Assembly (NCBI GenBank): GCA_963705255.1
Contig: OY970061.1
Location: forward strand, 2,016,001 to 2,080,000
Origin: an uncultured Methanoregulaceae archaeon
Lineage (GTDB): Archaea > Halobacteriota > Methanomicrobia > Methanomicrobiales > Methanospirillaceae
Direction: 5' to 3'
Length of the DNA stretch: 64,000 nucleotides
Shown here: piece after piece, positions 23,041 through 60,097 of the stretch
How positions within the stretch are numbered: the first letter of the stretch is position 1
Layout: every line of letters starts with the position of its first letter
Translations under genes and position numbers: made by a program
Notes under the pieces: model-generated
What the model was told of the DNA's origin: nothing
Databases searched by the model: none
The model's input: only the letters and a program-made list of their open reading frames with translations

Positions 23041-23123
23041 TGCGAGAAGCAGGAGTTGAACCTGCGAACGCCTGCGCGAATCGATCTTGAGTCGATCACC
23101 GTTGACCACTTGGTTATTCTCGC
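23041..23123 (-). tRNA. tRNA-Leu (anticodon CAA), no intron, CCA not encoded
   Basis: Reverse strand GCGAGAA...TTCTCGC-A acceptor stem, anticodon arm ATCGA-CTCAAGA-TCGAT, long variable arm, T-arm GCAGG-TTCAACT-CCTGC. Confidence 0.95.
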
Positions 23124-27189: not shown

Positions 27190-27384
27190 ACCGGTACGAT
27201 GGGTGGGAGGAGATTTATGGGTTCGGTTTCGGGACCGCTCGTACGACCGTGGTTCAGTTCTTAAAAAAGTTTGGGAATGATCAATAATCAGCCCCGAATG
27301 CGGCGACAACTTCATATTTTTTAGTCTGTAAAAATCCATTTTCGTGTATTATGATTCCCCCCCTCTTGCGCCACCAGAGTCGCA

Positions 27385-27590
27385 GAGCCACAGGCTCTTC
27401 TCCAGCCTGCTCTTTCAAAGAGCAGCCTTCCCCCGATGGGGGATGATGAGGGTCTTCAGACCCGAAGCAGGAGAAGAACGGGAACCGTTCTTCGACCCGG
27501 GGCGCATTGGGATGACACCAGAATAGGTAATACGGCACTATCGCAATTGGGGGGTGCCCGAGCGGCGGGGGCGTAGCCCCCGAGAGCGGA
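27385..27590. repeat. Tandem-GA hairpin repeat, cluster A
   Basis: 27448-27495 GA-GGGTC-ttca-GACCC-GA-agcag-GA-GAAGAACGG-gaa-CCGTTCTTC-GA; 27448-27474 matches 44754-44780 at 25/27. Confidence 0.8.
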
Positions 27591-35939: not shown

Positions 35940-36260
35940 TCACCTCTTTAATACGATGTTATAGCCGATCGCCCTGCGCAGGAGCTGTTCGATGTACGTC
36001 CTCCGGTCAACCTCTTTCGACTTCGAAGGGATGGGAATGATGAGCGGGCGGTGCATCTTCTCGATCCGGTCCATCAGTTTCTCATCGAGAGAGAGCATGT
36101 ACTCCTCGTTCACTGCTACGATGCCGATGTCGTCTTTGTACAAAAGGGGCGGGATAATCTTTTTTGCCTCCTCGATTGACCCCGCCTCCAGGACCTCGAC
36201 GCCGGCCAGCCGGAACCCCGACGCCCGGTCACTGTCCGTAACGATGACGAATTTATACAT
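35940..36260 (-). CDS. atpF: V/A-type ATPase subunit F
   Basis: GFRLAGV, PLIIPIPS, LRRAIG. Confidence 0.95.
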   Translation of the reverse strand: MYKFVIVTDSDRASGFRLAGVEVLEAGSIEEAKKIIPPLLYKDDIGIVAVNEEYMLSLDEKLMDRIEKMHRPLIIPIPSKSKEVDRRTYIEQLLRRAIGYNIVLKR

Positions 36261-37302
36261 ACACGAGTTCCTCCTTCAGGTTCTCAAGGGGGAAATCTGC
36301 GGTCTTGCACCGCGAGATGATCCGGATATTGGTGATCTCGTTATATTTTGCCCAGAAATAGCCTATGAGCGAGGTCACGCTGAGCGGATCCCCCAGAAAA
36401 GAACCCACGCCTTTCTGGATCAGGGACTTTTCGAGCTGTTTCTCGATGACCGATATCTTCTCCGTGCGAAGGGCGCTCTCGGGAATGCTGTTCAGGAACC
36501 GGTACCGGGTGGACTCAAGTGCCGAAAGGACATCCCTGATCGTTTTCAGGGAGAGGAGGGCGCTCAGGTCCTCGGGACCCAATTCCTTCCCCCCGTCAAT
36601 CAGGAATGTTTCAGCCTCCTCCGGATCGATGCGGTCCCGTATCATCCGCAGGATCGTCTTGATATTGATGACATCGATCTCAAGGGATATGAGGTCCCGG
36701 ATGATCGTGTTGTTGTAGGACGGTTTTTTTACTGAGACCAGAGCGTCCTGATAATAATACTTGTCAAGTTCGCATTCAAGAGTGGCAAGATTTTCGGTCT
36801 TCAGAAAGTCCGGGTACTTCTCCGTGAGGGGTTTTGCATAGGAGATACCCCATGTCGCAAGCAGGTCAATGACCGCCCGTACATCGGGCTGCCTGACGAG
36901 TTCCGTCAGGGTCGCCTCGTCGAGCTCCCCCGCGGGCACAAGACAATCGAGGATCTCCTCGTTCGTGATATGGATATTCTTCCCGCGGATGATCGTCTTG
37001 ATGTTCTGGACGTCCCAGCGGTGCAGGAATATCCTGATGTACCGCTCTGCCTCTTCTTCATGGGCGAAAGCAAGGATCTTCCGGAATGTCCGGGTGAAAT
37101 TTATCCGAAGGGCGTATTCAATGCAGAGTACCCCGGAGTACCTGCCTTTTGCCTCGGTAATCTCGTCCAGGTACGGGGTTTTTTCCAGCCTGGTTATCAG
37201 GGAAGGGATATCCGGCTGGAGGATGAGGTCATCGAGTTCCCGGTGGTCGAGCAGCCGGCTCCTCATCCCCCTCATCCGTGCATTGATATATCCCCAGTCC
37301 AT
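36253..37302 (-). CDS. atpC: V/A-type ATPase subunit C (d)
   Basis: YINARMRGMRSRLL, WDVQNIKTIIRG, KYNEITNIRII. Confidence 0.95.
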   Translation of the reverse strand: MDWGYINARMRGMRSRLLDHRELDDLILQPDIPSLITRLEKTPYLDEITEAKGRYSGVLCIEYALRINFTRTFRKILAFAHEEEAERYIRIFLHRWDVQNIKTIIRGKNIHITNEEILDCLVPAGELDEATLTELVRQPDVRAVIDLLATWGISYAKPLTEKYPDFLKTENLATLECELDKYYYQDALVSVKKPSYNNTIIRDLISLEIDVINIKTILRMIRDRIDPEEAETFLIDGGKELGPEDLSALLSLKTIRDVLSALESTRYRFLNSIPESALRTEKISVIEKQLEKSLIQKGVGSFLGDPLSVTSLIGYFWAKYNEITNIRIISRCKTADFPLENLKEELVYV

Positions 37303-37303
37303 C

Positions 37304-37888
37304 TCAACCTCCGAACAGGACCGAATAGATCTCGTGTCTCTTTCGCTCTTGTGCCCGTTCAAGCCGGGACTCGATCGTATTGGAGATCACCACGGCTCCG
37401 TCAGGAGAACTCACCACGAGGCCTCCTGCACACTCCAGATCGGTGAATACCTCACAGGAGATCCGCATGGCAGAGAGCGTCTTTCGCAGGAGGTCCTCGT
37501 CCCGTTTGTCGATATGGACCGAAAACCGGTCCTCACCCACAGCACCGATGGCCTCATGTACCAGTTTTTCAAATATCGCCGGGTATCCCGGATGCTCCCG
37601 CACCGCCAAAAGCTGCTGCCCGGCCTCATGAAAAGCTGAAGAAAAGATCTTCTCCTTGATAGTTATGATCAGTTCCTTGTTCTCCCCTTTTGTGAGATAG
37701 AGCAGTTTGTTCTTTTCAACTTCCGCAGACTTTTCTGCACCTGACAGGTACGACTGCTGTATCTCGTCCGCCTGCTTCTTTGTCTGCGCCTTGATCTCAT
37801 CGATCGCGACGCGTGCCTTTTCCCGGAGCTCCCGCTCCCGTTCCGTGGCACTCTCCTCTACCGACTTCAAAAGATTTTCATACGCCAT
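37304..37888 (-). CDS. atpE: V/A-type ATPase subunit E
   Basis: Coiled-coil N-terminus, GGLVV..DG...SNTIESRL, ends VLFGG. Confidence 0.92.
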   Translation of the reverse strand: MAYENLLKSVEESATERERELREKARVAIDEIKAQTKKQADEIQQSYLSGAEKSAEVEKNKLLYLTKGENKELIITIKEKIFSSAFHEAGQQLLAVREHPGYPAIFEKLVHEAIGAVGEDRFSVHIDKRDEDLLRKTLSAMRISCEVFTDLECAGGLVVSSPDGAVVISNTIESRLERAQERKRHEIYSVLFGG

Positions 37889-38028
37889 AGGCTTTCCCGT
37901 CCTGTCTGAAGGTCCCGGAATCACCAGCTGTAAGAACAGGATACTCCCGGTTGTTCCCGGTACGGGAGTTCGGTGACGATCCGTGGAGACGGGAACGAAG
38001 TGAAACTACTGCACCTCTGGTTCTAGGA

Positions 38029-38253
38029 TTACTTGACCATCAGGATGATCATTGATGCGATCACAAACCCCAGAATCACCAGCGTTTCCGGGATAGCTTC
38101 GATGATGATGATAGACCCCGCGGTCTCGGGTTTTTCTGCAATCGTCCCTGCTCCGGCTGCACCAATCCTCGACTGTGCCCACCCTGTTCCAATCGCACCC
38201 GCGGAAAAGGCTAATGCCGCCCCGATGGGTACTTCCCAGCCTGCCACATCCAC
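38029..38253 (-). CDS. atpK: V/A-type ATPase proteolipid subunit K (c), single hairpin
   Basis: AQSRIGAAGAGTIAEKPE and AIPETLVILG. Confidence 0.93.
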   Translation of the reverse strand: MDVAGWEVPIGAALAFSAGAIGTGWAQSRIGAAGAGTIAEKPETAGSIIIIEAIPETLVILGFVIASMIILMVK

Positions 38254-38348
38254 ACCTCCTAATGATAGAACCTAACAGATTGCAGCTATATTAAACTATT
38301 GAGAATAGTTCCGGAAAAATTCCGGGTGTCCGGATCCTTTCAACACGG

Positions 38349-38684
38349 TTATTCAACAGGAGGACGCCCGAGAATCGCGTCCAGTGCCGTGAACGTTTCA
38401 GGCGTCAGGCAGTGTCCGGATCGTATATCTCTTCCAGCCGTGATAAGTAAATGTATCTCTTCTTTGGTAAGTTTTGCAAAACTGTACGTATCCCATCGTT
38501 CCTGGTCAACATTGATCCAGACCTCGCCCAGAACTTCCCTCAATGCTGCATAATCTTCATCCGAGCACGATCTCCATCCGGAATCCTTCGCGCGGCGAAT
38601 CCTTTCGAGGGCATGCTCTACTGCTTTTTCCTTCCGGACCTGGAAACGCCTCCTGCCAAGAGTATCATCGGCTACGCGGGACAT
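38349..38684 (-). CDS. Hypothetical helical protein, paralog of 38860..39189
   Basis: Shares GRR..Q..KEK.VE...E.IR, W.S and W.N..Q..WD...F with its neighbour. Confidence 0.75.
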   Translation of the reverse strand: MSRVADDTLGRRRFQVRKEKAVEHALERIRRAKDSGWRSCSDEDYAALREVLGEVWINVDQERWDTYSFAKLTKEEIHLLITAGRDIRSGHCLTPETFTALDAILGRPPVE

Positions 38685-38859
38685 ACGACTATTTTGTGGG
38701 AATTATACAAGTACCGGTTTAAATTGCTTGTGCCGGTTGTATCCGTCTTTTTTGGATCTCCGGATTTTTCCCCGGGTTCAATCTCTCACCCCGGCCACAA
38801 GGAATATAGGCAGGGAGCGGGATTGTTTCATCATCTGAACACATGAGGGGGGGAATAAA

Positions 38860-39189
38860 ATGCCGGACGTGACAAAGACCGAGATCGGGAGAAGAATGTA
38901 CCAGCTCCACAAGGAAAAGAGCGTGGAGAAGATCATTGAGAAGATACGTGATAATATCGGACATGACTGGAAGTCATTCACCGGGGACGAGATCCACCTG
39001 CTGGAGCGGCTCCTGAGTGCAGCATGGGCAAACATCGAACAGTCAAACTGGGACAAAATACCGTTTTCCCGGATGTCAAAGGATGATGTCCGGCGGGTAC
39101 TCGATGTCGGGAAATACACTGATCTTGATAAAACACCGCAGCATGCTTTGGTGGCGGAGGTGGAAAAGGTCCTGCTCTCGGTAAAATGA
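38860..39189 (+). CDS. Hypothetical helical protein, paralog of 38349..38684
   Basis: Same shared motif pattern; purine-rich RBS upstream. Confidence 0.8.
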   Translation: MPDVTKTEIGRRMYQLHKEKSVEKIIEKIRDNIGHDWKSFTGDEIHLLERLLSAAWANIEQSNWDKIPFSRMSKDDVRRVLDVGKYTDLDKTPQHALVAEVEKVLLSVK

Positions 39190-39480
39190 TCCTCTTTTTT
39201 CCATATATCATGCTGCCGGGAGATTTTTCAGAATTCCCGGTGAAACGGGAGTGCCGGTCCTCTGCTGCATTCAGCCAATCTCAAACCGGTCGATCACGCT
39301 CTGGGTCTCTGCTGCCGCCCTCTTCAGTTCCTCAATCCGGTCCGCGACCGTCTCCTCATGATGTTTCCGCTTTGCAGGAGCCGGGTTGATCGCGCCATGG
39401 GGTGCCCCGATGGTGCCATGGTCTTCTCACTCCAGACCCGTCCGGCCACCGCACCAGCACCGCCGGGACGACAATCAAAT

Positions 39481-39765
39481 TCGAAGGGTGATTGATGTCA
39501 CCCTTCTCATCCTCGAATTTCGCTTTGCTCAATTCTTCGGAGATCGAAGAATTCTCGCGAATTCGGTCGAAGAACTTCGTTCAGGAGAAGATTCTTCTCC
39601 TGTCTCAAGTCCGATGACTTTCGACAAGAGGGATTTTTCAAATCCCTCTGCTTCATCCTTAAGGGATGAAGCATTCTGATGACCCTCAGCATTCTCCTCC
39701 TCCAGGTCGGAGAGGTTTATCAAAACCTCGATGAGGAGAAGGGAGGTGTAAGCCGACCTTCGACT
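39481..39765. repeat. Tandem-GA hairpin repeat, cluster B (left island boundary)
   Basis: Many hairpins; 39560-39583 equals revcomp 44831-44854 (23/24); 39675-39696 equals revcomp 44745-44766 (21/22). Confidence 0.85.
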
Positions 39766-39768
39766 TTC

Positions 39769-39981
39769 TTATGGACCTATCGGACGTCGGAGAAACCTGA
39801 TGGTTTCTTCTTTTCCTTCAGGTCTGATGACCTGTCGGACAAAAAAAACGACCGGCATGTACGCCGAACCCCTGAACACGACCAGCACAATGTCCAGCAC
39901 CATCCCGAGGGCCAGCCCTGCAGCGATGCCGACGATGAGGCGCCTGATCGTGCGGTCTTCGAAAATGGTGGAGTCCGTCAT
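39769..39981 (-). CDS. Small membrane protein
   Basis: One or two hydrophobic segments, purine-rich RBS; stop abuts repeat cluster B. Confidence 0.5.
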   Translation of the reverse strand: MTDSTIFEDRTIRRLIVGIAAGLALGMVLDIVLVVFRGSAYMPVVFFVRQVIRPEGKEETIRFLRRPIGP

Positions 39982-40101
39982 GGTTATTTCCTTACTTATC
40001 TTGCGTCATGCTGGTTCTAGAAATTTTTTGCGGGGTTCAGCTTTGTTATTTCCATCACATCCAGGCACCGGACGGTGCCAGTGCACGGGTCATCATGCAT
40101 C

Positions 40102-40335
40102 TCAGCCGTCCCCGCTCCCGAACACGTCCGGGAAATATTCCCGGACCCGGCGGCGTTCCCGCTCGTTTAGCTCGCGGAGTTCCGGGCCGGCGAGCCCTAT
40201 GATGAATGCCGCCGCATCATCGCGGCACCTGAATATGCGGATCACCGGCCCGTCTCCCGCCGCGATCTGGTACCGGAGGTGAAAACAGGTCTCCTTTGCG
40301 GGCACCGGGCGGGCGCGGGAGTATTGTGCTGCCAT
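40102..40335 (-). CDS. Small hypothetical protein
   Basis: 77-aa ORF divergent from the XRE gene. Confidence 0.5.
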   Translation of the reverse strand: MAAQYSRARPVPAKETCFHLRYQIAAGDGPVIRIFRCRDDAAAFIIGLAGPELRELNERERRRVREYFPDVFGSGDG

Positions 40336-40511
40336 TATCCCGTATACCGGTGACTGGTGAGGTTTTCCCGGAACGACAGGGTACCACGTTCAGACCAAGC
40401 ATCTATAGCCGGGGGTGTCCGATCGGGATTTTCTTTGGGGTCCGGGGTTTGACGAATTTGATTCACCAGGCACCAAGGAATGTGTTGGCGGGCGGGGAGG
40501 ATAAATTTGTC

Positions 40512-40521
40512 GACTATAGTC
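40512..40521. promoter_or_regulatory. Palindrome GACTATAGTC, candidate operator of the XRE regulator
   Basis: Perfect 10-bp palindrome ~45 bp upstream of the XRE gene; resembles GACT-n-AGTC boxes of R-M controller proteins. Confidence 0.45.
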
Positions 40522-40568
40522 TGCGATAGGCATTAGCCTATTTTCAACTGAATCTCATTTGAGTGAAA

Positions 40569-40832
40569 ATGCACGAGGAAGAAATTTTTGGCAAGATGCT
40601 GCAGGAAGAGCGGAAAGCCAAAAAAATTTCCCAGGAGAAACTTGCAAAACTCGCCGGCCTCGACCGGACCTTCATCAGCCTCATCGAGAACGGAAAACGG
40701 AGCCCGACATTTTCTACTATTTTGAAGATCTGTTCAGTTCTCGAGATCGCTCCTTCTGAACTATTCTCGATTTACGAGAAGAAGGATCCGGATTACAGGG
40801 CGAAAAAAGGTGGGAAGCGTGAGAGGTTTTGA
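40569..40832 (+). CDS. XRE-family HTH regulator (R-M controller-like)
   Basis: FGKMLQEERKAKKISQEKLAKLAGLDRTFISLIENGKRSPT. Confidence 0.92.
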   Translation: MHEEEIFGKMLQEERKAKKISQEKLAKLAGLDRTFISLIENGKRSPTFSTILKICSVLEIAPSELFSIYEKKDPDYRAKKGGKRERF

Positions 40833-40983
40833 CGCTCAATGGGGCTGGTCCGGCACCATTCACGATATTCTCCGATTGAATAAACCGCACTGGCTCGCAT
40901 CCATGAATGTAGCAGAACCTCTTTAATAAAAAATGCAACCATTTATCGTTTTCAGATAATAAAAGAGAAGCAGTGAGCCTGTC

Positions 40984-41430
40984 GTGAAGATATACCTGGA
41001 CGTATGCTGCCTCTGCCGGCCTTTCGATAACCATCATGAGACCAGGATACGGTTGGAGACGGAGGCAATTCTTACGATCCTGAAACGCTGTTCCCTCGAT
41101 TGGGAACTGGTCACGAGTACCGCAGTGCTGTACGAGGTTGGCCTCATCGGGGATCCGGTAAGAAGATCCCATGTCATGAGGCTGACGAGTCGCGCCCGAA
41201 AGACGATAACTGTTGATGAAGCCCTGTTGTTGCGGGCAGAAGAGATCGAAAAGGATGGAATCATGGGAATGGATGCCATTCATATTGCGTGTGCTGAGAG
41301 AGCCGGTGCGGTGTTCCTGACAACGGATGACGAGGTGATAAGGATTATGAAGAAGCATACCCCAGATATATCCATACGGGTCGATAACCCGCTGCGCTGG
41401 CTGATGGAGTTGAACCATGACGGAGAGTAA
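40984..41430 (+). CDS. PIN-domain (VapC-like) toxin
   Basis: IYLDVC..RPFD, DAIHIACAE, FLTTDD, NPL.W. Confidence 0.92.
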   Translation: MKIYLDVCCLCRPFDNHHETRIRLETEAILTILKRCSLDWELVTSTAVLYEVGLIGDPVRRSHVMRLTSRARKTITVDEALLLRAEEIEKDGIMGMDAIHIACAERAGAVFLTTDDEVIRIMKKHTPDISIRVDNPLRWLMELNHDGE

Positions 41431-41623
41431 GACCATTGCCCAGATCCAGAGTGAAGGGTACGATGCCCTGGTAAATGCTCTTGGACCGGAGGATGCCGTC
41501 CGGTTTATCCGGAGTTTCGATCCCGGGAGTGGCGATTATACAAAAGAGCGGAAGAAAACGTTTAAGAAAAAGACGGCAAAGCAGATCGGGAAAGAGATCC
41601 TTGAGCTGCAGAAGACGATCTGA
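41417..41623 (+). CDS. Putative antitoxin partner of the PIN toxin
   Basis: Overlaps the toxin 3' end; G..AL...LG...A.RFI..F..G.GDYT.ER pattern. Confidence 0.8.
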   Translation: MTESKTIAQIQSEGYDALVNALGPEDAVRFIRSFDPGSGDYTKERKKTFKKKTAKQIGKEILELQKTI

Positions 41624-41706
41624 CTCTATTTTCACTTCTCTATCGTGTCGATCTCCGCAATGAACTCCATCAGCCGTTCGAGTTCCGGCCCGGACCATCG
41701 TTGTTT

Positions 41707-41805
41707 TTACTCCATCCCGTTCGACCACCGCACTAGTACCGCCAGGACCACGATGAGCACGAAGTCGAAGACTAGGATTACCAAACTAATTCCGGATACT
41801 TTCAT
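41707..41805 (-). CDS. 32-aa single-TM peptide MKVSGISLVILVFDFVLIVVLAVLVRWSNGME
   Basis: Translated by hand (below the ORF-track cutoff); lies just downstream of the left arm of a palindromic promoter region. Confidence 0.45.
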   Translation of the reverse strand: MKVSGISLVILVFDFVLIVVLAVLVRWSNGME

Positions 41806-41820
41806 AGTATACCGGTAAGC

Positions 41821-41924
41821 GGATTTCGGTATCCTCCACTTAACGTTTCTAACGCGATCGTCTACCGGTCAGGGGTCCGGTAGAGAGTTGCGTTAGAATC
41901 GTTATATATCGCGTAACGAAATCC
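41821..41924. promoter_or_regulatory. ~100-bp imperfect palindrome / divergent promoter pair
   Basis: TCTACCGG/CCGGTAGA, TTCTAACGC/GCGTTAGAA and GGATTTCG/CGAAATCC arms; TTATATAT at 41902-41909. Confidence 0.65.
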
Positions 41925-41930
41925 CCATTC

Positions 41931-42260
41931 GTGGACAGCCGGGGGTTGTCCCGAAAAGAAATGATGGGTTCACCAGGCGACGAACTTCGTTGAACCCGGT
42001 CCGCCCGCAGGCATGTGATCATTATCGTACATTCTTATGAGGATTTTCCCGTGCCCGGGTTGACAGCAAGGGAAGTGATAGCATAGACTCCACATACGGA
42101 AAGCAGAACAAAATGGCGGTATCCGGCAGGATACCGTCCTGGTTAACGAAGGAGAGCGGCCACTTACACCTTACCGGGGATGTACTCCGGGGGCAGGGAT
42201 TCCCGGCAGGGGTATCCGGTCAGCCTGCAGGAAAAAACCGGAAGCGGAGGCGGGCACAGG
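41931..42260 (+). ncRNA. Candidate structured RNA or long 5' leader
   Basis: Starts ~22 nt after the TATA-like box; hairpins GGACAGCC/GGTTGTCC, GGGTTCA..TGAACCC, GGTATCC/GGATACC; no convincing ORF. Confidence 0.35.
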
Positions 42261-42530
42261 ATGCCGAAGAGTAAATCCGTGACTGAAGGCGGTATTCCGC
42301 TCTATCTCCTGCCTCAGGCAATCGCACGGCAGATCACCAGGATCGGCAACTCAGTGTACCGCATCAGCGTGAAACGGACGCACTGGCATTATTACAACAT
42401 ATCCGTCAGGACAAAATCCCTGCCAAAGGAGCTTGCCCCGGCACGGGTTATCCAACGTGCTTCCCCGCAGGAGAGGGAACCGGACAATCATTATCCTGTC
42501 ATCCAGGAGGATAAACGGTGTACGGTATGA
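42261..42530 (+). CDS. Small basic hypothetical protein
   Basis: GGAGG upstream of MPKSKS; stop overlaps the next start (ATGA). Confidence 0.65.
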   Translation: MPKSKSVTEGGIPLYLLPQAIARQITRIGNSVYRISVKRTHWHYYNISVRTKSLPKELAPARVIQRASPQEREPDNHYPVIQEDKRCTV

Positions 42531-42916
42531 GCCGGGGACCACACCCGGGAAGGACGCTCGCCGTTGCCATCCCGATCGCAGAAATGCGGGGGACTGTCCA
42601 TATCGTCCGGCAGGCCCGCGGGAGCCTGTATGATTTCGTGATCTCGACTGCGGTCCCGGTCGCGTTTGTCCGCGTGAAGTATACGGACTGGATTCTCATG
42701 ACGCTCCCGGAGGCAGAAGCATACTACCGTGATGTGATCAATGGCCTCCGTGCCATTGCATCAACAGAGAATGTTTCGCGTGAACTCTGGCTGCGTTCCC
42801 GGCATGGGACCTGGCGGTTCTTCCGGGTTGGCGAGAACGGTCCCGTTGAGCTCTCACGGAACGGCATGGTATTCAATACACCCGGTAAGGAAAAAGTCAA
42901 ATCTCGTCAGGTATAG
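42527..42916 (+). CDS. Hypothetical protein, possible degenerate PD-(D/E)XK nuclease fold
   Basis: YDFVI-x7-FVRVK resembles the Hjc-type D-x-EVK motif with E replaced by R; RELW....G.WRFFRV. Confidence 0.55.
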   Translation: MSRGPHPGRTLAVAIPIAEMRGTVHIVRQARGSLYDFVISTAVPVAFVRVKYTDWILMTLPEAEAYYRDVINGLRAIASTENVSRELWLRSRHGTWRFFRVGENGPVELSRNGMVFNTPGKEKVKSRQV

Positions 42917-43371
42917 GGAAGTGAGGAAGAAGGGATCTCCCCTCTTTTACCTCTCTTCTGATGGGGGGGATCCTGATCCTCTTTTGGGGGCACCTCCCAA
43001 ATCTCCCCTATACGGGCTCCGATTGGCCATTTTTCCGGATCCAGAGGAGGTATTTCGTCAAAATGAGACATTATTTCGCTAAGATTTGCTCATTTTCACG
43101 TCAGTAATCCAGAGACGCTATTTGGGTGTATTTGGAAGGCGAAAAACAGCTTGGATCGGCCTTCAGGCCAGGAGCGCCGGGAGGATGGTTAATGGGGCTT
43201 TTCAATTACGATCCCATTTTTGCGAAACCCTCCGGCAGATTTCCTGCCACGGATTATCTCCAAATGCCAGCAAAACCCTCCGTTTTGCCCTCTGAAAATT
43301 TATTCAGCCAAGCCCATCTGCTCATAAAACCCATACTGATATGTCCAAAGGAGTTCTGCAGAACCCCGTGG

Positions 43372-43513
43372 ACGAGAAGAATGACGAAGTCATTCTTCAC
43401 TGTCAAAGGGGCCCTGGAGACACCAAAAGAAAACGAGGTTCGGTGAACCTTCGAGAGGTCGAAGAAATGTTTCACATTTCTTCTCCTCTTCGAGGTTCGA
43501 ATCGAACCTCTCA
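43372..43513. repeat. Tandem-GA hairpin repeat, cluster C, in the leader of the 43538 gene
   Basis: Minus strand 43512-43459: GA-GAGGTTCGA-t-TCGAACCTC-GA-agag-GA-GAAGAAATGT-gaa-ACATTTCTTC-GA. Confidence 0.85.
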
Positions 43514-43537
43514 GAAACAAAAGGAGGAACCAAAAAC

Positions 43538-44041
43538 ATGGCAGATTTCGTACAGAAAACAACCGTAAAGACAGCGGTTCGCATCCTCGCGAACCCGATA
43601 GCAGACGCAGCGGCGTTCAACACGATCGTCCAGTCGGTCATCACGACCAACCCGTTTGCATGCACAGCCTATGAGACCGCCGGCGTCAGCCACCAGCCGG
43701 TAGAGAAGACCAAGGAGTCCTACGTGGCGAAGATCGTGTACCAGGATTCCGACGCGAAGACCGTCGGGACCGACTCCGGCAGGTTCAGCTCCATCGCCGG
43801 GTTCAATGCCGGCGCCACGGCACTCCTCGGGAATGCAGCCCTCACCGCAGCCCACGGGGGCACCCCGGCCCGGGACACGGCACACGAGACCTACTCGGCA
43901 ACCCTGAAGTGTCACGACGCGAACGGGGAGATCTACATGGTCACATTCGGCCGGCAGAGTGTGAGCCTCACCTCGTACTCGGACGATGCGATCCGGACCA
44001 AGGTCGATACCTGGGCCGACTCGGTGGGGGCCCTGGCATAA
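43538..44041 (+). CDS. Uncharacterised 167-aa Ala/Thr-rich protein (MADFVQK...)
   Basis: Strong AGGAGG RBS, biased codon use, downstream hairpin. Confidence 0.85.
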   Translation: MADFVQKTTVKTAVRILANPIADAAAFNTIVQSVITTNPFACTAYETAGVSHQPVEKTKESYVAKIVYQDSDAKTVGTDSGRFSSIAGFNAGATALLGNAALTAAHGGTPARDTAHETYSATLKCHDANGEIYMVTFGRQSVSLTSYSDDAIRTKVDTWADSVGALA

Positions 44042-44064
44042 CGTGTTCTGGGCGTGAAGTCGCC

Positions 44065-44094
44065 AAAGGGGGTGACCAGCGGTCACCTCCCTTT
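44065..44094 (+). terminator. Hairpin after the 43538 gene
   Basis: AAAGGG-GGTGACC-agc-GGTCACC-t-CCCTTT. Confidence 0.55.
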
Positions 44095-44127
44095 CTGGCC
44101 CGTCCATCCTATCACGGAGGCAAAACC

Positions 44128-44292
44128 ATGGAAACTGAAATTCTGGGATTGCTGCTCGGGGCCGTCCTCCCGCTCTATCCCCTGCTGTTCGCCATCTACC
44201 AGAAGACCGGCAGGTATGACGAGATCGTCGAGGAGTTCAAAAGACTCCGGGACGAGCACGAGCATTACCGGGAGGCGCATCATGGGGGATGA
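44128..44292 (+). CDS. 54-aa protein, one TM plus charged coiled tail (holin-like architecture)
   Basis: GGAGG RBS; METEILGLLLGAVLPLYPLLFAIYQK...FKRLRDEHE. Confidence 0.7.
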   Translation: METEILGLLLGAVLPLYPLLFAIYQKTGRYDEIVEEFKRLRDEHEHYREAHHGG

Positions 44293-44746
44293 GATCGCAC
44301 CGGTCGCAACCGTGACCGGCCTGTACCGGGGCACCTTCAGCGGCCTCGAACCGCTCACGAAGGACACCCCGCTCACGCTCGACGAGGTTCGGCGCAACCC
44401 GGTTTTCTACGAGCTGGAACTGCACCCGGAGCAAGAGAAGGCGAACCTGATCATCGATGTGATCTATGACAACATGTCGCCGCTGCGGCTGCAGGACCTG
44501 ATGCGGGGAACGGATCTCCCGCGGGGCGTCCGGTTCTGGCCGGACTGGTTCGAGATCCCGCCCTACCGGGAGATGCGCGATATTGACGGCCGCAGGGTCT
44601 ACCCGCGCTCGCCGGGCATCCACACGGTCCGTATCCGGACCGCGAAGCGGAAACTGGGAAATGTCCGGGACTTCAGCCCGGCAAACGGCGGGTACACGAG
44701 TCCGGTGTTTGAGATTACCATAGTCGCGGACAGGAACAACGTTTGA
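44282..44746 (+). CDS. Uncharacterised 154-aa protein
   Basis: GGAGG RBS, overlaps the previous gene, stop abuts repeat cluster D. Confidence 0.8.
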   Translation: MGDEIAPVATVTGLYRGTFSGLEPLTKDTPLTLDEVRRNPVFYELELHPEQEKANLIIDVIYDNMSPLRLQDLMRGTDLPRGVRFWPDWFEIPPYREMRDIDGRRVYPRSPGIHTVRIRTAKRKLGNVRDFSPANGGYTSPVFEITIVADRNNV

Positions 44747-44895
44747 GAATGTTGAGGGTCATCAGACCCGAAACAGGAGAATGTCGAGAGTCATCAGATT
44801 TGAGACATGAGAAGACCGAAGGTCTTCGAATGAACGAAGTTCTTCGACTGAATTGAAAGTCATCACATCCGGGCAACCCTCTTCAGGAGGGAGGA
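44745..44895. repeat. Tandem-GA hairpin repeat, cluster D (right island boundary)
   Basis: GA-GGGTC-atca-GACCC-GA; TGTC-GA-GAGTC-atca-GATTT-GA-GACA; GA-GAAGACC-gaa-GGTCTTC-GA; inverted homolog of cluster B. Confidence 0.85.
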
Positions 44896-45021
44896 CGATG
44901 TTTGAGAACGAGCTGCAGGCCCCGGCCGCCGTCTGCGGTTCCAGGCTCCTGCCCGGGATTATTTTTTTCACCTGCCGCTCCGCGATGACTGGTTCGGGAC
45001 TTTGACGGGATCAAACCCACC

Positions 45022-46185
45022 CTACTCCGTCGCCACCTTCACGCACTCCTCGATCGTCCCGATCCGGGCCACCGCAGCACACATGTCCGGGACGTACGCG
45101 AGCGCCTTGCCGCTGTTCACCATGATCGCCTCGTACTGCTCCATGACCGGTGAGACCACCATGCAGGTGTCCGCAAAGACCCGGGCCCCGCTCTTCTCGA
45201 TAGAGTCGGCAACCCGCTGGCTGGCCTCGATGACGCCCTGCGCAGCAAAGACGTAGAGCGGCATCGTGACCAGTTTTCCCTTCAGGAGCCGGGCGATCTC
45301 TTCCAGTTCTTCAGGGGAGCAGTGGGGGCACCCGACCGCGACCGCATCGACCGGGATCTCTTTGAACAGGTGCCGGATCTCACCGGATTCCACGGCGATA
45401 GTCTCAAGGCCGGTGAGATCGAAGGGCACCTTCACCGCCTCGGGCGTGATGCCCTCCACATGGTAGAGCGCCACGGCCCCGGTCGCCGCCATCGCCGCCC
45501 CGAGGGCCTTGAGCTGGTCGCGGTCCGGGTTTATCCCTGAGAAGAACGGGATGCGATTGCCTGCCAGTTTTCCCGCATGGTAGCCAAGCGCCCCGAAATG
45601 TGCGATGGACCAGTCACGGGTATCGGCCTGCACCCGGATGACCAGCTGCGGCTTCCGGTTTTTTGCAAGGTGAAGGCCGTAGCAGGGGGTCTTCCCGACC
45701 AGTGCGGCGGCAAGGGCGCCGGGGCCCCCTTCCCGGTTCGTCCGGGCACCGATGACCGAGTTCGCGTAGCTGACCGCGGACGACTCCGACCATGCGAGGT
45801 GGTCGCCAAAGCTCGTCTCGTGCAGGTAGTAGGGCGTGCAGGTGCATTCGAGGCCGATGCCGAGCCGCTCGTAGGCAGCGACCACGGCCTGCTGCTTCTG
45901 CGCAAAGTCCTCGTCCACGCCCATCTCCTGCCAGCGCCCGCGGGGCATCCCTATCGGGTTCAGCACGGCCGGGACCACGGCTTTTGCGTCGAGCGAGTTG
46001 AGCCACTGGAGGCCGTACTCGCCGATCGTCTTGTAGGACGCGCCGCTCACCTGTGCGCTCCGGATCCTGACCAGCCGTTCCGCACCGAAGACCTTCCCCA
46101 GCGCGACGAGGAGCTCCAGCATCCTCTGCCGGGTCTCGCCCTCTTCTCCGGCAAGGACCCGTTCGTCCTCAGGTTCGAGCTGCAT
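45022..46185 (-). CDS. Aconitase X large subunit (probable phosphomevalonate dehydratase)
   Basis: QVSGASYKTIG, CTCTPY, WSESSAVSYANSVIGARTNREGGP, GCPHCS, DTCMVV, NSGK; clustered with ubiD/ubiX. Confidence 0.92.
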   Translation of the reverse strand: MQLEPEDERVLAGEEGETRQRMLELLVALGKVFGAERLVRIRSAQVSGASYKTIGEYGLQWLNSLDAKAVVPAVLNPIGMPRGRWQEMGVDEDFAQKQQAVVAAYERLGIGLECTCTPYYLHETSFGDHLAWSESSAVSYANSVIGARTNREGGPGALAAALVGKTPCYGLHLAKNRKPQLVIRVQADTRDWSIAHFGALGYHAGKLAGNRIPFFSGINPDRDQLKALGAAMAATGAVALYHVEGITPEAVKVPFDLTGLETIAVESGEIRHLFKEIPVDAVAVGCPHCSPEELEEIARLLKGKLVTMPLYVFAAQGVIEASQRVADSIEKSGARVFADTCMVVSPVMEQYEAIMVNSGKALAYVPDMCAAVARIGTIEECVKVATE

Positions 46186-46189
46186 CGGT

Positions 46190-47424
46190 TCACCACGTCG
46201 CACGGGAGAATTCGTCCTCGCGCCCGAGCACCATCGTTGCGTCGATCCCGACCTTGACGTTCGTGCCGTCCTCCAGCTGGCAGGGGTCGAGGGACGACCC
46301 TCTCACGCCGGTGATCACCATGATGTCCCGGTCGCCGCTGACCCGGGTCGCGACCGCGTACTCCACGTCGTTGGGGTCGCAGGGGTCGATGTCCTCGTCA
46401 ACGACAACGACGTGCTTGAGCGAGGTGTGGGCGGCGAATGCGGCCATGATCGCGTTCTTTGCATCGCCCTGCGTGCTCTTTTTGATCTGGATCACCGCGT
46501 GGAGGTAGCCGCAGCCCCCCTTGGTCAGGACCACGTTTCTCACTTCGGTAACCCCGGCCACTGCGCGGTAGATCTTCGGTTCATACGGGCAACCCATCAG
46601 CACTTTATGCTCGTCTCCCCCGGGCAGGATACCATGATAGATGAAGTCCGTTTTCGTGTGCATACCGCTGAACTCGATGACGGGCTGGCGCCGGACAGGA
46701 TCGTAGGTCCCGGTGATATCGACAAACGGCCCTTCGTCCGTGAGATCGGGGCCGATGAACCCTTCGAGCACGATCTCCGCATCGGGCACAAGCACCCCGT
46801 TGCTGCACTTCCGTACCGGATTTCGCCGCCGAGAAGTTCTGCTGCATACCCGAGCTCCATGCCGGTCGGCACCCGGGTGCAGCTCGCAAACGTGACTGCC
46901 GGGTGGGTCCCGATGGTCACAGCGATGGGCAGTTTCCCGCCTTCCGCGAGCGCTTTTTTGAGCATCACGTGCGTGTGCCGCCCCTCGACAAGCCGGGCCG
47001 CCACCCGGTGGTCGTCGAGCACCAGCATCCGGTGGATCGAAGCGTTCTCCACGCCGTCGAACCGCGAGAAGACGATAGCCGAAGTGAGGTACTTCCCTGC
47101 GTCTTTCGGGAAGTGGTGCATGATCGGCAGGCGGGAGAGGTCGGGTTTTTTCATCGGCAGGGTGCCGTCCTGCACCACCTTCCCGTCAAATTTTGCATCG
47201 GCAAGGGTCTTCACGATCTGTCTCTCGTCGATGCCGAGGGCAACGGAGAGCGAGGCCCGGCTCGCGGTGAGGTTCATGACCGCCCGCCCCCCGCCGATGT
47301 TGTGGAAGAACAGGAGCTTGTCGGTGGTGGCTGCCATCTTCGGGGCCTGCATCTCTGCCGAGACCGGCTCGTCGATATCGATGACCAGGTCCCGCTTTCG
47401 CATCTTCTCTATGAATTCACGCAT
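46190..47424 (-). CDS. ubiD: UbiD-family decarboxylase (probable anhydromevalonate-phosphate decarboxylase); frameshift ~46815
   Basis: [49 protein letters not shown]. Confidence 0.92.
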
Positions 47425-47971
47425 CGTAACCATTCCAGCGTTTTATGAGGTCGTGCTCCACCCCGAGATGGTCGAGCACGCGCGCGACGACCATGTCCAC
47501 AAGGTCGTCGATGGTCTTCGGGTTGTGGTAGAATGCCGGGCAGGCGGGCATGATCGTTGCGCCGGCGTCCCCGGCGGCCAGCATGTTCTTCAGGTGGATC
47601 TTCGAGAGCGGGGTCTCGCGGGTGACAAGGATGCACTTCCGGTGCTCCTTGAGGCAGACATCGGCAGTGCGGGTGATCAGGTTGTCGGCGTAGCCGGCTG
47701 CGATTGCGGCAAGCGTCTTCTGGCTGCACGGGATCACCACGAGGCCGTCAAACCGGTGGGAGCCGCTTGCGATGGGTGCGGCGATCTTATCAATATCATG
47801 GTAGACCGCATCGAAACCTTCGAATGAGACCCCTTCGTGGCTGGCAATCTGTTGTGCCACGTCCGACACGATGATGTGTACCGTTGCGTCCCTGCAGAGC
47901 ACCTCCAGCAGGCGCCGGGCATAGCAGGCCCCGCTCGCGCCCGTCACTCCGACTGCAAACTCTCTCTTCAT
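47417..47971 (-). CDS. ubiX: Flavin prenyltransferase
   Basis: GVTGASG, IASGS, PCSQKTL, RETPLS, PAFYHNP. Confidence 0.96.
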   Translation of the reverse strand: MKREFAVGVTGASGACYARRLLEVLCRDATVHIIVSDVAQQIASHEGVSFEGFDAVYHDIDKIAAPIASGSHRFDGLVVIPCSQKTLAAIAAGYADNLITRTADVCLKEHRKCILVTRETPLSKIHLKNMLAAGDAGATIMPACPAFYHNPKTIDDLVDMVVARVLDHLGVEHDLIKRWNGYDA

Positions 47972-48055
47972 GGTTGCGTTCCGCTCTCCTGTGATACCAA
48001 TGTCGGGTTTATGACAAAAAGAGTTTATGCCGGGATCCGCCCGCCCGGGCCCTTG

Positions 48056-55535: not shown

Positions 55536-55724
55536 GTGCTCCTATGCCGGGTCACCGCGATCAAAAAAAAGCGCGGTCAGCCGGAAAGAGGCAGCGCCGG
55601 AATGAAAACAGGTCGGGAGGAAAAGGACGGGAAAGGATCATAGTATAGCCGGAAAATGATAAAAAAATGGGCTTTGTAGAAATTCTATTTTATCGCATGA
55701 TTCGCTCATATTCTTCAACGGAAT

Positions 55725-56110
55725 GAGCGTGACCCCCTCTCTCAAGTCGAAGGGGGGAGGCAACGCAAGGGAGCATCCCCTTGAATCTCTGAGAGGTCTT
55801 CGGAATGTCGAAGGTCGGCTTTTGCCTCCCTTCTCCTTCTCGGGATTTGATAACCCCTCGAACCTCGAAGAGGAGAAGATTTACAAAGTAAATCTTCGAC
55901 CCCTTTTTCGGGATTTTTCATAAACCTTCTGAGGGACTATCGCAATTTTGGGGGAAATCTGCCGTTGCCCAAGGCAAGGGCAGATTCGAGAAGATGCGAG
56001 AGCATCTTCGCTGTGCCCTGGTGGCAGGCAATTCGAAGAACGCTGACGCGTTCTTCTCTTGTCTCCATGACTTCGTCATGTCGACATCCCCAAGAGCGAC
56101 TGCTTGTCTC
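55725..56110. repeat. Tandem-GA hairpin repeat, cluster E (largest, nested)
   Basis: 55807-55878 is similar to revcomp 39692-39764; GA-GAAGATTTAC-aaa-GTAAATCTTC-GA; TGTC-TC-CATGAC-ttc-GTCATG-TC-GACA. Confidence 0.85.
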
Positions 56111-56148
56111 TATAAGGATTTCTACAGAACCAAACAATGAGAAAGGAC

Positions 56149-58577: not shown

Positions 58578-58811
58578 GAATTCACCTGTATTCCATATGG
58601 TACGTGTATATATAGTATTTTTCCGGGTTCTGGCAAGTTGTCGGGAGTTCGACTATTCCGGAATCTTTGTCAAAAATCGGCAGCTCGCAATGTAAACTTT
58701 GAGGATTGTTGAAAGCAGTTATCATCATGGGATAAAAGTTAGTGTTAACTGTCGTGGATTAGAAGAAAAAATTTGTTACTGTGGTAGCGGACGATTATAA
58801 TTAATGTACCA

Positions 58812-59383
58812 TTAATCGTCGTTGTAATCGCTTAAAGGTACATTCTTGCTGATTCTCTCAAGCTCTCTGTGAATGTCAATATAAAGCGGGACTGTATCAC
58901 GCCCTTTCAATTTTTGAGGATCTATGATTGCTTCATGAAAATCAAACCTTTTGTAGAACCCAACGGCTTCTGGTTCGCATCGACCGTAATAATTCTGCAA
59001 CCGATATATGCTGAGAATCGGATCCAGATTGCGTAAATCTTTCTAAGCATACAGCGGCCTATTCCCTGTCGTTCAAATTCTTGATGGGTGGCTAAACGTG
59101 CAATTTTTAGTGCAGGATATGTACTATATGTAAAACCGGGATCTCCATCTCCATTAATGAGTTCCTTCTTCTTGATGACGTCAGTGACCAGAGTGAAATA
59201 CCCCGCAAGCCGACCTTTATAAAAAACGAGTCGTGTAACTGATGTCCGGTCTAACTGATTCTCATAGGCATCCTCAATTAAAAAGCCCTTCAATTCATCA
59301 TTATTGCATTTAAAAGTGGGAAGATGATGAAGATAATCAGCAGTCAGAACTAAAAAGTCTAGATCTTCACAGCCGATACTCAT
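58812..59383 (-). CDS. GNAT acetyltransferase toxin (AtaT/TacT-like); frameshift ~58975
   Basis: F.C.NDEL..FL...A, YPALKIARLA....RQGIG, GCRIITVDA, A..FY. Confidence 0.85.
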
Positions 59384-59530
59384 TTAAAGACGTGATCTCT
59401 CAGCTAACTCAGCCGCTTCCCTAATCAGCTTACGACCCGCATCAGTATATTTCGGATTATCAATATATTCTTGAAATCTGATAGACTCCTCGTGATCAAG
59501 GACGAGTCCCAACTCAATAGGTTTTGCCAT
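59384..59530 (-). CDS. 48-aa putative antitoxin MAKPIELGLVLDHEESIRFQEYIDNP...
   Basis: Hand-translated; TAA immediately precedes the GNAT ATG; purine-rich RBS. Confidence 0.7.
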   Translation of the reverse strand: MAKPIELGLVLDHEESIRFQEYIDNPKYTDAGRKLIREAAELAERSRL

Positions 59531-59760
59531 CTCTCATCTCCCCTATGTTAACACGAGTGTTAACACTTTGTTAGCAATGTTATATTATAATTACTTAAAG
59601 ATTATTCCATTTTACTAGAGAACACTCTCTTATTTTATAGAGAAAAATTCCATAACTGGTTGTTATCTCACATCATCATGAATTCATTTGTTCTTATGTT
59701 TTTACCAACAGCCACTTATCACACCCATTAGAATCTATCTAAAAGAAAAAAATATTGAGA

Positions 59761-59975
59761 TTATTTTACTCGTGCCATCTGGCTTGCATTCCGTATCAAT
59801 ACCATCCACTTGGTATCCCCCTCAACAACAATCCCGCACGCCTCAGCGGGTGTCTTTCCTTTTAACGCTTCGTGCCCACGGACAAAGTTGTGGTAAATCT
59901 GCATTCCGGGGAGGATCTTTGTATCGACTTTCTTTAACCCGCGCATTGCTTGTTCCCGGTCCCGAATCAACTTGA
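59761..59975 (-). pseudogene. 3' remnant of a DDE transposase/integrase
   Basis: RGLKK...IYHNFVR.H..LKGKTPAEACGI is the typical end of an rve/DDE domain; no 5' part present. Confidence 0.75.
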
Positions 59976-60097
59976 CAGAACCTTGTTGCGGTCCGGCCGG
60001 AAGCGGTACCGTTCCGGTCTTTCAGCCCGGCCGGAACAGTGATATGCAGCAATTATTATTGCAGCGATACCGAACTATAGATTGAGGAAGGTCGCTC

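Follow-up and report, generated by a model that had tools for sequence, protein, structure and literature searches.

The described elements that come closest to the repeats reported here are the repetitive extragenic palindromes (REP) of bacteria, the bacterial interspersed mosaic elements (BIME), and the REPIN-RAYT systems, in which the moving unit is an inverted REP doublet that is associated with a REP-associated tyrosine transposase (RAYT). According to the part of PMC3733652 that defines them, bacterial REPs carry the tags GTAG or CGTC. Here, we describe a family of GA-tagged hairpins in the genome of an uncultured Methanoregulaceae archaeon (GenBank assembly GCA_963705255.1, contig OY970061.1) together with a 5.4-kb island (positions 39481-44895) that is bracketed by two clusters of these hairpins, clusters B and D. 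The island lies within a stretch of 64,000 nucleotides (nt), bases 2016001-2080000 of the genome, that we refer to as the window; positions are those of the window unless given as genome positions. Our data make it probable that the region is a strain-specific accessory islet of ~5.8 kb, a patchwork lodged in a convergent gap between core genes, and that its hairpin clusters are independent local arrays of a genome-wide family.

Similarly to REP, BIME and REPIN-RAYT elements, the archaeal hairpins are tagged palindromes of ~20-35 nt with hundreds of copies that are mostly extragenic and enriched at gene 3' ends, and, as in the REP/BIME class, they form mosaic arrays of mixed orientation, are restricted to a lineage and turn over fast within a species. 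Unlike REPs, they have an archaeal host, their tag is GA-GAAG...CTTC-GA rather than GTAG or CGTC, and 160 sequences among 232 are distinct. Unlike the REPIN-RAYT systems, they have no Y1/RAYT gene, and the moving unit appears to be a two-hairpin module of 50-62 nt rather than an inverted REP doublet. Palindrome-associated transposable elements (PATEs) derive from IS200/IS605 insertion sequences, move by peel-and-paste transposition and are far larger than the GA-tagged units. Both have strand-asymmetric hairpins, and the GA units may insert directly 3' of a short fixed word (GAGAA^) with no obvious duplication, a flank found for 13 of 24 units of one type here while other units have other flanks or direct repeats; the GA hairpins differ from PATEs in having no TnpA, in being unlinked to the TnpB-like open reading frames (ORFs) of the genome, in their far smaller size and in several indels with direct repeats. 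In relation to miniature inverted-repeat transposable elements (MITEs), of which the window holds a classical example (55672-56133), the GA units are guests within MITEs and lack terminal inverted repeats (TIRs), and the island itself has neither TIRs at its borders nor a target duplication. Finally, Rickettsia palindromic elements (RPEs) and intragenic REPs resemble the GA hairpins in that the palindromes occur within ORFs, in our case in a gene for a small protein with two transmembrane segments (the two-TM gene), in a paralogue of a gene for a 54-amino-acid (aa) protein, and, in a three-gene module, at the 3' end of the last gene. According to the relevant lines of PMC3733652, RPEs are inserted in frame and the proteins that carry them probably remain functional; the GA hairpin insertions, in contrast, truncate or disrupt small accessory ORFs.

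The island as a whole is most similar to the accessory islets rich in toxin-antitoxin (TA) genes that occupy intergenic hot spots: it is strain-specific, lies between core operons, contains TA-like pairs, small hypothetical genes and gene fragments, and occupies a site at which content varies, and nothing essential sets it apart from them. By comparison, an integron cassette array would have IntI with attI nearby and an attC hairpin at the end of each cassette, whereas here IntI is missing from the neighborhood and most module junctions are without hairpins. With integrase-type genomic islands, the locus shares an empty site in relatives, but neither a recombinase nor attachment-site (att) repeats were found.

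The islet occupies a gap between core genes

The host genome is a single contig of 2.60 Mb with a marker-based completeness of 89.5%. On the right side, the island is followed by acnX and then by a UbiD-like gene; on the left side lie two conserved genes for 109-aa proteins and, beyond them, an operon for an A-type ATPase (subunits C and E). The island is therefore located between core genes. Homologues of the 109-aa gene next to the island are found directly downstream of acnX in 29 relatives. The stop codon of acnX is separated from that of the 109-aa gene by 44-88 bp in 21 of the 29 relatives holding both flanking genes, by 390-3218 bp in the remaining eight, and by 5832 bp in the window, and the content of the gap differs from genome to genome. 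The short gap in most relatives shows that this convergent gap is an ancestral empty site and that it has become an insertion hot spot in the sub-lineage of the window. An empty site between 39189 and acnX had been anticipated in an earlier interpretation of the window made from its letters (the sequence-only reading), and here that reading was right.

The nearest relative is a sister strain represented by a metagenome-assembled genome (G031, acnX locus L001; AcnX identity 96%). It aligns to the window at 96-97% from 50000 to 45022 and again from 39200 to 29934, and between these flanks it carries 728 bp of unrelated sequence without hairpins. Because 366 bp of this filler are 90.7% identical to genome 2457363-2457728 of the host, both strains seem to have used the same sequence pool. 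The DNA that separates the 109-aa gene from acnX in the window is a real insertion specific to its lineage.

The borders of the variable segment (~39200 and ~45022) are 280 bp outside cluster B and 127 bp outside cluster D. A comparison of 39150-39300 with 44900-45060 gave no shared direct word of at least 8 nt and a single inverted 8-mer; at the borders of the island we found no att-like repeat, no target duplication and no tRNA gene, the sole tRNA gene of the window being at 23041-23123, and at the exact ends of the variable segment there are no TIRs, clusters B and D lying inside these ends. These observations bear directly on the proposal of the sequence-only reading that the island is a single mobile or virus-derived element of 5.4 kb, with B and D as its terminal cis sites and the solo clusters elsewhere as its non-autonomous derivatives. 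The inverted matches between B and D, the empty site in relatives and a high local density of repeats are in line with this proposal, as is the missing conventional integrase, which would call for a new mechanism. Borders that lie outside the clusters and that lack a target duplication or att-like repeat largely refute it, and the mosaic interior and the properties of the clusters described below make it very improbable.

The interior is a mosaic of paralogous pieces

We mapped the island against its own genome using tblastn and blastn. The stretch 39429-40846, which includes a C-terminal fragment of the two-TM gene, cluster B, the truncated two-TM gene, a 77-aa gene and an XRE-type regulator, corresponds to genome 2427674-2431800 with 84-95% nucleotide identity, and 41633-41771 matches genome 2427598-2427736. 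Further to the right, 41889-43478 aligns to 2467538-2469137 (1.59 kb) with 97-100 identities per 100-column block, 43533-44032 has a counterpart in the genome that is 97-100% identical, and 44155-44727 matches 2470398-2470970 at 92%. The matching copies are all in a hypervariable region of ~45 kb (2.426-2.471 Mb) that is 370-410 kb away from the island. Thus, the mapping resolves the island into a mosaic whose pieces, at least five in number, have independent paralogues. As identities range from 49% at the aa level to 100% at the nucleotide level, the pieces cannot have come in together as a single element, and these differing ages count against the single-element proposal. We suggest that recombination or duplication gave rise to the islet, its modules being copied or recombined from the pool that fills the 45-kb region, with one piece still 100% identical to its counterpart. 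The 45-kb region (genome 2426000-2471000) contains many TA-like pairs, small hypothetical genes, AT-rich stretches of low coding content, hairpin clusters, and paralogues of nearly every module of the island.

This make-up raises the question whether the hairpin clusters themselves cause the mosaicism, such that short homologies or attC-like single-strand sites shuffle small gene cassettes, and the islet and the 45-kb region are cassette arrays. Clusters do occur at equivalent positions in paralogous modules, with arrays in three of five copies of the two-TM gene (none at genome 2429597 and 2433290), clusters with three of six copies of the gene for a 167-aa protein, and clusters with both copies of the last module gene. 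Moreover, clusters are enriched in variable DNA, and one unit indel is accompanied by a 13-nt direct repeat of shared module ends. Against cassette shuffling, the internal junctions of the island (~40250/40303, 40846, 41633, 41889 and 44044) are away from hairpin clusters, clusters also occur in MITEs and beside core genes, and an IntI-like recombinase is found neither near the island nor near the 45-kb region. Together with the border statistics given below, this renders cassette shuffling unlikely. The same paralogues speak to a check suggested by the sequence-only reading, namely whether paralogous modules carry the same repeats: repeat-free copies exist for two of five two-TM genes and three of six 167-aa genes, which counts against hairpin clusters as the cis sites of one element.

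Clusters B and D are local arrays

The inverted homology between clusters B and D was reproduced by blastn with the 23/24 and 21/22 matches reported originally; in the alignments, 39560-39591 pairs with 44823-44854 (32 nt, 88%) and 39675-39696 with 44745-44766 (22 nt, 95%). When folded as single strands, both clusters form series of hairpins (z -2.6 for D and -4.8 to -5.1 for B), and the last ~40 nt of D (44856-44895) contain one more, untagged hairpin (44877-44891). We ranked all 528 pairs among the 33 clusters of at least 100 nt and found that 246 of them score as high as or higher than the B-D pair (40 bits). D is only number 16 of 32 among the partners of B and B number 15 of 32 among those of D, and the best partners are the cluster at genome 2427729 for B (192 bits) and the cluster at 2430523 for D (115 bits). 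Close neighbors are common among cluster loci, 28 of 101 gaps between them being 6 kb or shorter compared to 21.4 +- 3.7 for random placement. Because the similarity between B and D is at the median and better partners exist elsewhere, B and D are not each other's partners, which is a further point against a single element delimited by them. Nor can solo clusters be regarded as derivatives of the island, as the island clusters are ordinary members of the family.

Comparison with paralogues indicates that cluster B is an insertion inside the small two-TM gene. The intact gene encodes a protein of 65 aa at genome 2433230-2433427, whereas the copy in the window has 47 codons, followed by ~370 nt of hairpin modules and then by the last codons out of frame. 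With the C-terminal codons displaced beyond the array, the stop codon at 39769 is therefore repeat-derived. Paralogues at genome 2427923 and 2430674 have arrays at the same insertion site (2427729-2427912 and 2430523-2430663), in a direct and not an inverted context; that B interrupts a gene, as its two relatives do in direct context, counts against the single-element proposal. Between these arrays, whole modules are gained or lost, with 39627-39671 and 39709-39767 of the window missing at 2427xxx, and a metagenome contig joins 41764 to 39900, which is the hairpin-free arrangement. Cluster D varies as well: one metagenome contig lacks exactly one 32-nt tandem unit (44776-44809), indicating a unit polymorphism at the population level.

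Cluster B is an array lodged in the two-TM gene and cluster D an array at the 3' end of the three-gene module; in our model, the inverted appearance of the pair comes about because the two outermost modules happen to face outwards. The GA strand, i.e. the strand on which the GA form is read, is mostly the sense strand of the neighboring gene in both clusters. Two claims of the sequence-only reading about this geometry failed. Repeat sequence does not begin at the stop codon of the terminal gene in the case of B, in which it reaches ~39848 inside the truncated ORF, and the repeats are not all read in the same sense, since one hairpin of B (39712-39729) has its GA form on the + strand and the three-gene module is preceded by leader hairpins in antisense orientation. 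The search for junctions suggested by the same reading was less conclusive: among the metagenome contigs listed (four DNA runs) none has a B-D circle joint or a 39200-45022 join and none spans the island, which is a point against a single element from contigs only, and, as contigs break at repeats, the missing B-D joints say little. Neither viral families nor viral folds were matched by the island proteins, which also disfavors a virus-derived element, and nothing points to a virus as the origin of the islet. The island is an ordinary accessory islet, and the bracketing hairpins are coincidental.

Several considerations weigh against this reading. Five hairpin loci lie within +-15 kb of the island, which puts the local repeat density above the genome background and in the top 1% of 30-kb windows. 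Of 18 segments of at least 1 kb that differ from the sister contig, the islet alone has clusters close to its two borders, leaving room for some hairpin link to its assembly. Overall, six of the 36 borders are within 400 nt of a cluster, two of the six being those of this island, and none of the other 17 segments is bracketed by clusters; their 4/34 borders near a cluster, set against background rates of 3.6% for all positions and 8.5% for intergenic positions, argue against cassette shuffling. In addition, one sister contig (548 kb, collinear with host 1.669-2.242 Mb at ~95-97%) was compared in full, the strain indels record presence or absence with gain and loss not polarised by an outgroup, and the gene calls are crude (a home-made codon-usage caller, 74.5% coding), making the intergenic and orientation counts in the next section approximate.

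A genome-wide family of GA-tagged hairpins

Iterated blastn searches starting from B and D identified 134 clusters at 102 loci all round the chromosome. Perfect hairpins with a stem of at least 7 bp and flanked by GA..GA or TC..TC number 232 in the genome compared to 20 in a Markov-1 genome, and 220 of them have stems starting with GAAG. A count of GAGAAG..CTTCGA brackets gives 270, of which 160 fold without mismatch. Judging from these copies, the basic unit is GA-GAAG..stem-loop-stem..CTTC-GA, often placed after a stem with a conserved tandem G.A/A.G mismatch. A second unit of 27 nt, TGTC-GA-stem-ATCA-stem-GA-GACA, has 24 copies in 15 variants; the tandem G.A/A.G is invariant in all 15 variants while adjacent pairs covary, 13 of the 24 copies come after GAGAA, and a GAGAAG hairpin whose sequence varies comes after 21 of the 24. 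On the GA strand, G.T wobbles outnumber A.C mismatches (22 vs 12), a weak hint that this is the structured strand. Loops are genome-wide mainly ATCA/GTCA tetraloops and GAA/GCA/GTA/GGA (GNA-type) triloops. C-GAA-G is an unusually stable DNA mini-hairpin motif.

Most tagged hairpins (205/232) are outside called genes, with 79 of the 205 in convergent gaps, which make up 22% of intergenic bases, 40 in divergent gaps, and 39 and 47 in tandem gaps in sense and antisense orientation, respectively. The latter two numbers imply that there is no transcript-sense rule, and we saw no replichore orientation bias of the hairpins. The distribution is relevant to the idea that the clusters are functional elements of RNA 3' ends that, like bacterial REP/BIME, serve in termination or mRNA stabilisation and are kept by selection downstream of the two outward-facing genes of the island. 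In agreement with such a role, hairpins are enriched in convergent gaps, stems vary in a compensatory manner around the invariant tandem mismatch, G.T exceeds A.C on the GA strand, and this strand is mostly sense to the adjacent gene in B and D. A role at RNA 3' ends would not account for the 39 sense and 47 antisense hairpins of tandem regions, for leader hairpins that are antisense, for units that interrupt ORFs, or for loci that differ between strains that are ~96% identical. Consistently, a search against Rfam (E<=1) of 36000-48000, a range that would include the candidate ncRNA named without coordinates in the sequence-only reading, yielded no family at its gathering score, the only sub-threshold matches being IMES-5 (29 bits vs 96) and mir-5391. 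We therefore assign a low probability to a selected 3'-end function. A scan with bacterial-type promoter and terminator models, which are ill-suited to archaea, remained at shuffle level.

The family was detected in two of 18 other Methanoregula genomes sampled, whereas 12 genomes from other genera yielded none; in the sister strain the hairpins are abundant. From this survey, the family appears to be restricted to a lineage within Methanoregula, and because 16 of the 18 other Methanoregula genomes gave no match it is not a conserved regulatory device. The exact 33-nt unit pattern had no matches in viral contigs. The literature searched contained no description of these repeats in Methanoregula, with the limit that supplementary tables may list archaeal REP classes, and Methanoregula is not mentioned in passages from two papers on palindromic repeats (PMC12306157 and PMC3733652). 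Apparently, this is an undescribed REP/BIME-like hairpin family without RAYT. Its interest lies in being a REP/BIME-like family of a methanogenic archaeon that is confined to one Methanoregula lineage, varies even between strains of ~96% identity, nests within itself, a MITE and genes, and has no RAYT-type transposase. On the practical side, hairpin arrays break short-read assemblies and create false small ORFs and stop codons in annotations, as in the "70-aa gene" that ends in cluster B.

Hairpin modules turn over between strains and nest in one another

Within the range of the sister contig there are 22 host hairpin loci, of which 15 have unambiguous flanks in the sister strain, and 11 of these 15 differ by at least 50 nt. 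Host and sister strain are distinguished by 54 indels of at least 18 nt; 17 of these contain tag words, at least two of them probably by chance. Among the indels is a 50-nt unit that, in the host, interrupts a hairpin at GAGAA^GAATGCC (genome 1759018) where the sister strain has the hairpin uninterrupted, and a 62-nt unit present in the sister strain only (1809013), which is of the same type as the indel 39709-39767 between cluster B and its paralogue. At 27378-27496 of the window, hairpin units of 51 and 55 nt lie on either side of a small palindrome, and both are missing in the sister strain. Two of the strain indels are clean at GAGAA^GAA. These comparisons show that gain or loss affects hairpin modules as whole blocks, each 50-62 nt long.

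The units also insert into one another and into other sequences. In the paralogue of the three-gene module, the last gene has a hairpin unit inserted 10 codons upstream of its stop, the 54-aa gene is interrupted by tandem units after codon 7, and the leader has an extra two-hairpin unit of 56 nt that is flanked by a 13-nt direct repeat in otherwise identical DNA and is missing at 43461-43510. The genome contains 13 complete copies of the MITE (237-527 bp), none of them autonomous; the seven copies of 237-257 bp are without GA hairpins, while the six copies of 361-527 bp have hairpin modules at three internal sites. Altogether, units are found nested within the feet and loops of hairpins, within MITEs and within ORFs, and they retain their structure. 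The link between GA hairpins and mobile DNA that the sequence-only reading proposed is thus upheld to the extent that the hairpins behave as insertional DNA and turn over fast; they are not cis sites of the island, because its borders are outside the clusters.

Strain differences in the window extend to a 1.36-kb segment at 58633-59995 (genome 2074633-2075995), in place of which the sister strain has 60 bp.

Candidate mechanisms of spread

As the sequence-only reading had stated, no integrase or transposase is encoded by the island: none of its ORFs matched a recombinase or transposase family. The Y1_Tnp/RAYT family (PF01797) has no matches in the host genome, and the positive control for this search matched in six of 14 genomes. 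The sole match of the genome to tyrosine recombinases (PF00589) is at 2540082-2540543, ~480 kb from the island, and none was found near the island or the 45-kb region. The genome also has two short TnpB-like ORFs (250-259 aa) without TnpA, one at 19084-19863 of the window (genome 2035084-2035863; 259 aa, Cas12f1-like_TNB, E 5.6e-21) and the second at genome 2543266-2544018. We considered the TnpB-like ORFs as partners of the hairpins and rejected them, as there are no GA hairpins within ~2 kb of them. A family with a weak nuclease-like fold, encoded in the islet by the 132-aa gene, was likewise rejected as mobiliser of the hairpins, since all 18 Methanoregula genomes sampled contain it, compared to two of 18 for the hairpins.

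We envisage two ways in which hairpin units could spread, either by a dedicated hairpin-specific enzyme or by recombination or slippage between the GAGAAG/CTTCGA ends that units have in common. One very recent indel has a 13-nt direct repeat, which favors recombination or slippage, while the recurrent GAGAA^G site favors an enzyme. On this basis it is tempting to speculate, although we regard the idea as doubtful, that the modules are a new type of ultra-small mobile DNA of this archaeon, consisting of two-hairpin units of 50-62 nt that owe their shape to an invariant tandem G.A/A.G mismatch and GNA-type loops, that insert preferentially in the conserved foot of existing hairpins (GAGAA^G) and thereby produce arrays that grow by nesting, and that also enter MITEs and ORFs. 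As the genome has no RAYT/Y1, such DNA would have to be moved by an as yet unnamed enzyme that acts on single-stranded hairpins, and clusters B and D would be two growing arrays. If the modules are actively mobile, a hairpin-specific DNA enzyme that is not yet known would be implied; if they spread by recombination between short homologies, they would offer a clean natural system for the persistence of palindromic repeats.

Genes and fragments of the islet

The features of the islet and its surroundings are listed in Table 1. The XRE regulator, the PIN gene with its partner, the palindrome and the leader hairpins described in the sequence-only reading are all present. Apart from the XRE regulator, searches of the island proteins against PHROGs, NCBIfam and PADLOC returned nothing.

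Table 1 Features of the accessory islet, its core flanks and the MITE of the window
Feature	Position	Strand	Basis and remarks
109-aa gene, conserved, function not assigned	38860-39189	+	Left core flank; converges on acnX; 90% aa identity in sister strain
Strain-variable mosaic segment, real extent of the island, ~5.8 kb	39200-45021	.	Sister alignment and gap survey of relatives
C-terminal part of small coiled-coil-like ORF, start codon missing	39284-39414	-	87% identical to genome 1764261-1764391
Displaced 3' end of two-TM gene, encodes ..VVPAVLVRWPDG	39437-39475	-	Aligns to C-terminus of intact 65-aa paralogue, 2433230-2433427
Hairpin cluster B, nested GA-tagged modules within two-TM gene	39476-39848	.	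Comparison with paralogues
Truncated two-TM ORF, 70 aa	39769-39981	-	Native part is first 47 codons (39841-39981); tail and stop from repeat
77-aa hypothetical gene	40102-40335	-	62% aa paralogue at genome 2431006-2431209; no family match
XRE-type helix-turn-helix (HTH) regulator	40563-40832	+	PF01381 (HTH_3), E 7.8e-16; PADLOC HTH/control-protein models; paralogue 2431516-2431783
PIN gene (40984-41430) and overlapping downstream 68-aa partner (41417-41623)	40984-41623	+	PF01850, E 1.4e-6
Second, orphan 3' fragment of two-TM gene paralogue	41716-41790	-	Own-genome comparison
Long imperfect palindrome upstream of 42180 gene	41821-41924	.	48-nt arms, 73% complementary; fold z -5.55
Very recent duplicate of genome 2467538-2469137	41889-43478	+	100% identity 41989-43388
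Overlapping pair: 116-aa gene (42180-42530) and 132-aa gene (42518-42916)	42180-42916	+	Weak nuclease-like fold in 132-aa protein
Leader hairpins	43461-43510	-	GA form on - strand, antisense to downstream three-gene module
167-aa protein, function not assigned	43538-44041	+	Very abundant Methanoregula family
54-aa small membrane protein (METEILG...)	44128-44292	+	Paralogue at 2470xxx split by hairpin units after codon 7
154-aa hypothetical gene, last of three-gene module	44282-44746	+	86% aa paralogue at 2470360-2470971
Hairpin cluster D: two tandem 32-nt TGTC-GA units, GAAGACC hairpin and host-hairpin remnant	44745-44895	+	At 3' end of last module gene
acnX	45022-46203	-	Right core flank; PF04412, E 3.7e-149; collinear in all relatives
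MITE, 462 bp, TIR GGCTTTGTAGAAAT.., 8-bp AT-rich target duplication	55672-56133		Missing at orthologous sister site

The PIN gene and its partner are kept as a pair at genome 2458118-2458700 (49% and 55% aa identity). In VapBC systems, the canonical order has the antitoxin gene upstream of the PIN gene. The pair of the islet resembles the VapBC type in consisting of a PIN toxin with an adjacent small conserved partner and differs from it in gene order, the partner being downstream and overlapping the PIN stop (41417-41430). The 3' end of the two-TM gene at 39437-39475 occurs again at 41716-41754, and the segment 41753-42241 around the long palindrome is present at seven or more loci in the genome.

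The sequence-only reading described a nuclease-fold gene; the gene is there, and support for the fold is weak. The model of its 132-aa protein has a predicted local distance difference test score (pLDDT) of 80.6, and the best rows in Foldseek are splicing endonuclease and Hjc with E 2.5e-3 to 4e-2 and template modeling (TM) scores of 0.37-0.49 (0.42-0.49 for the support at E 2.5e-3). A profile search of PDB sequences with this family gave no match, and in the family alignment R52 is invariant and, instead of a clear E-x-K, there is a V-R-V-K stretch. We counted 16 matches to the family in the host genome; it occurs in all 18 Methanoregula genomes sampled and in one of 12 genomes of other genera, and the 116-aa upstream partner is found beside four of 15 examined copies. 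Members of the family are often in variable DNA.

The model of the 167-aa protein is alpha/beta with a pLDDT of 93.5. Fold searches gave no informative match: Foldseek against PDB gave a best E of 5.6e-3 with TM scores of at most 0.37, a wider structure search found generic alpha/beta domains only (best Z 7.8), BFVD viral models gave no match, and a protein atlas search gave no usable match (best score 0.75). The family is length-invariant and abundant in Methanoregula metagenomes, with 1305 clusters at 90% identity and 414 representatives at 50%, and has six paralogues in the host genome.

Outside the islet, the two 109-aa genes on the left flank, 38373-38684 (-) and 38860-39189 (+), are divergent paralogues with 29% identity that are kept beside acnX across Methanoregulaceae.

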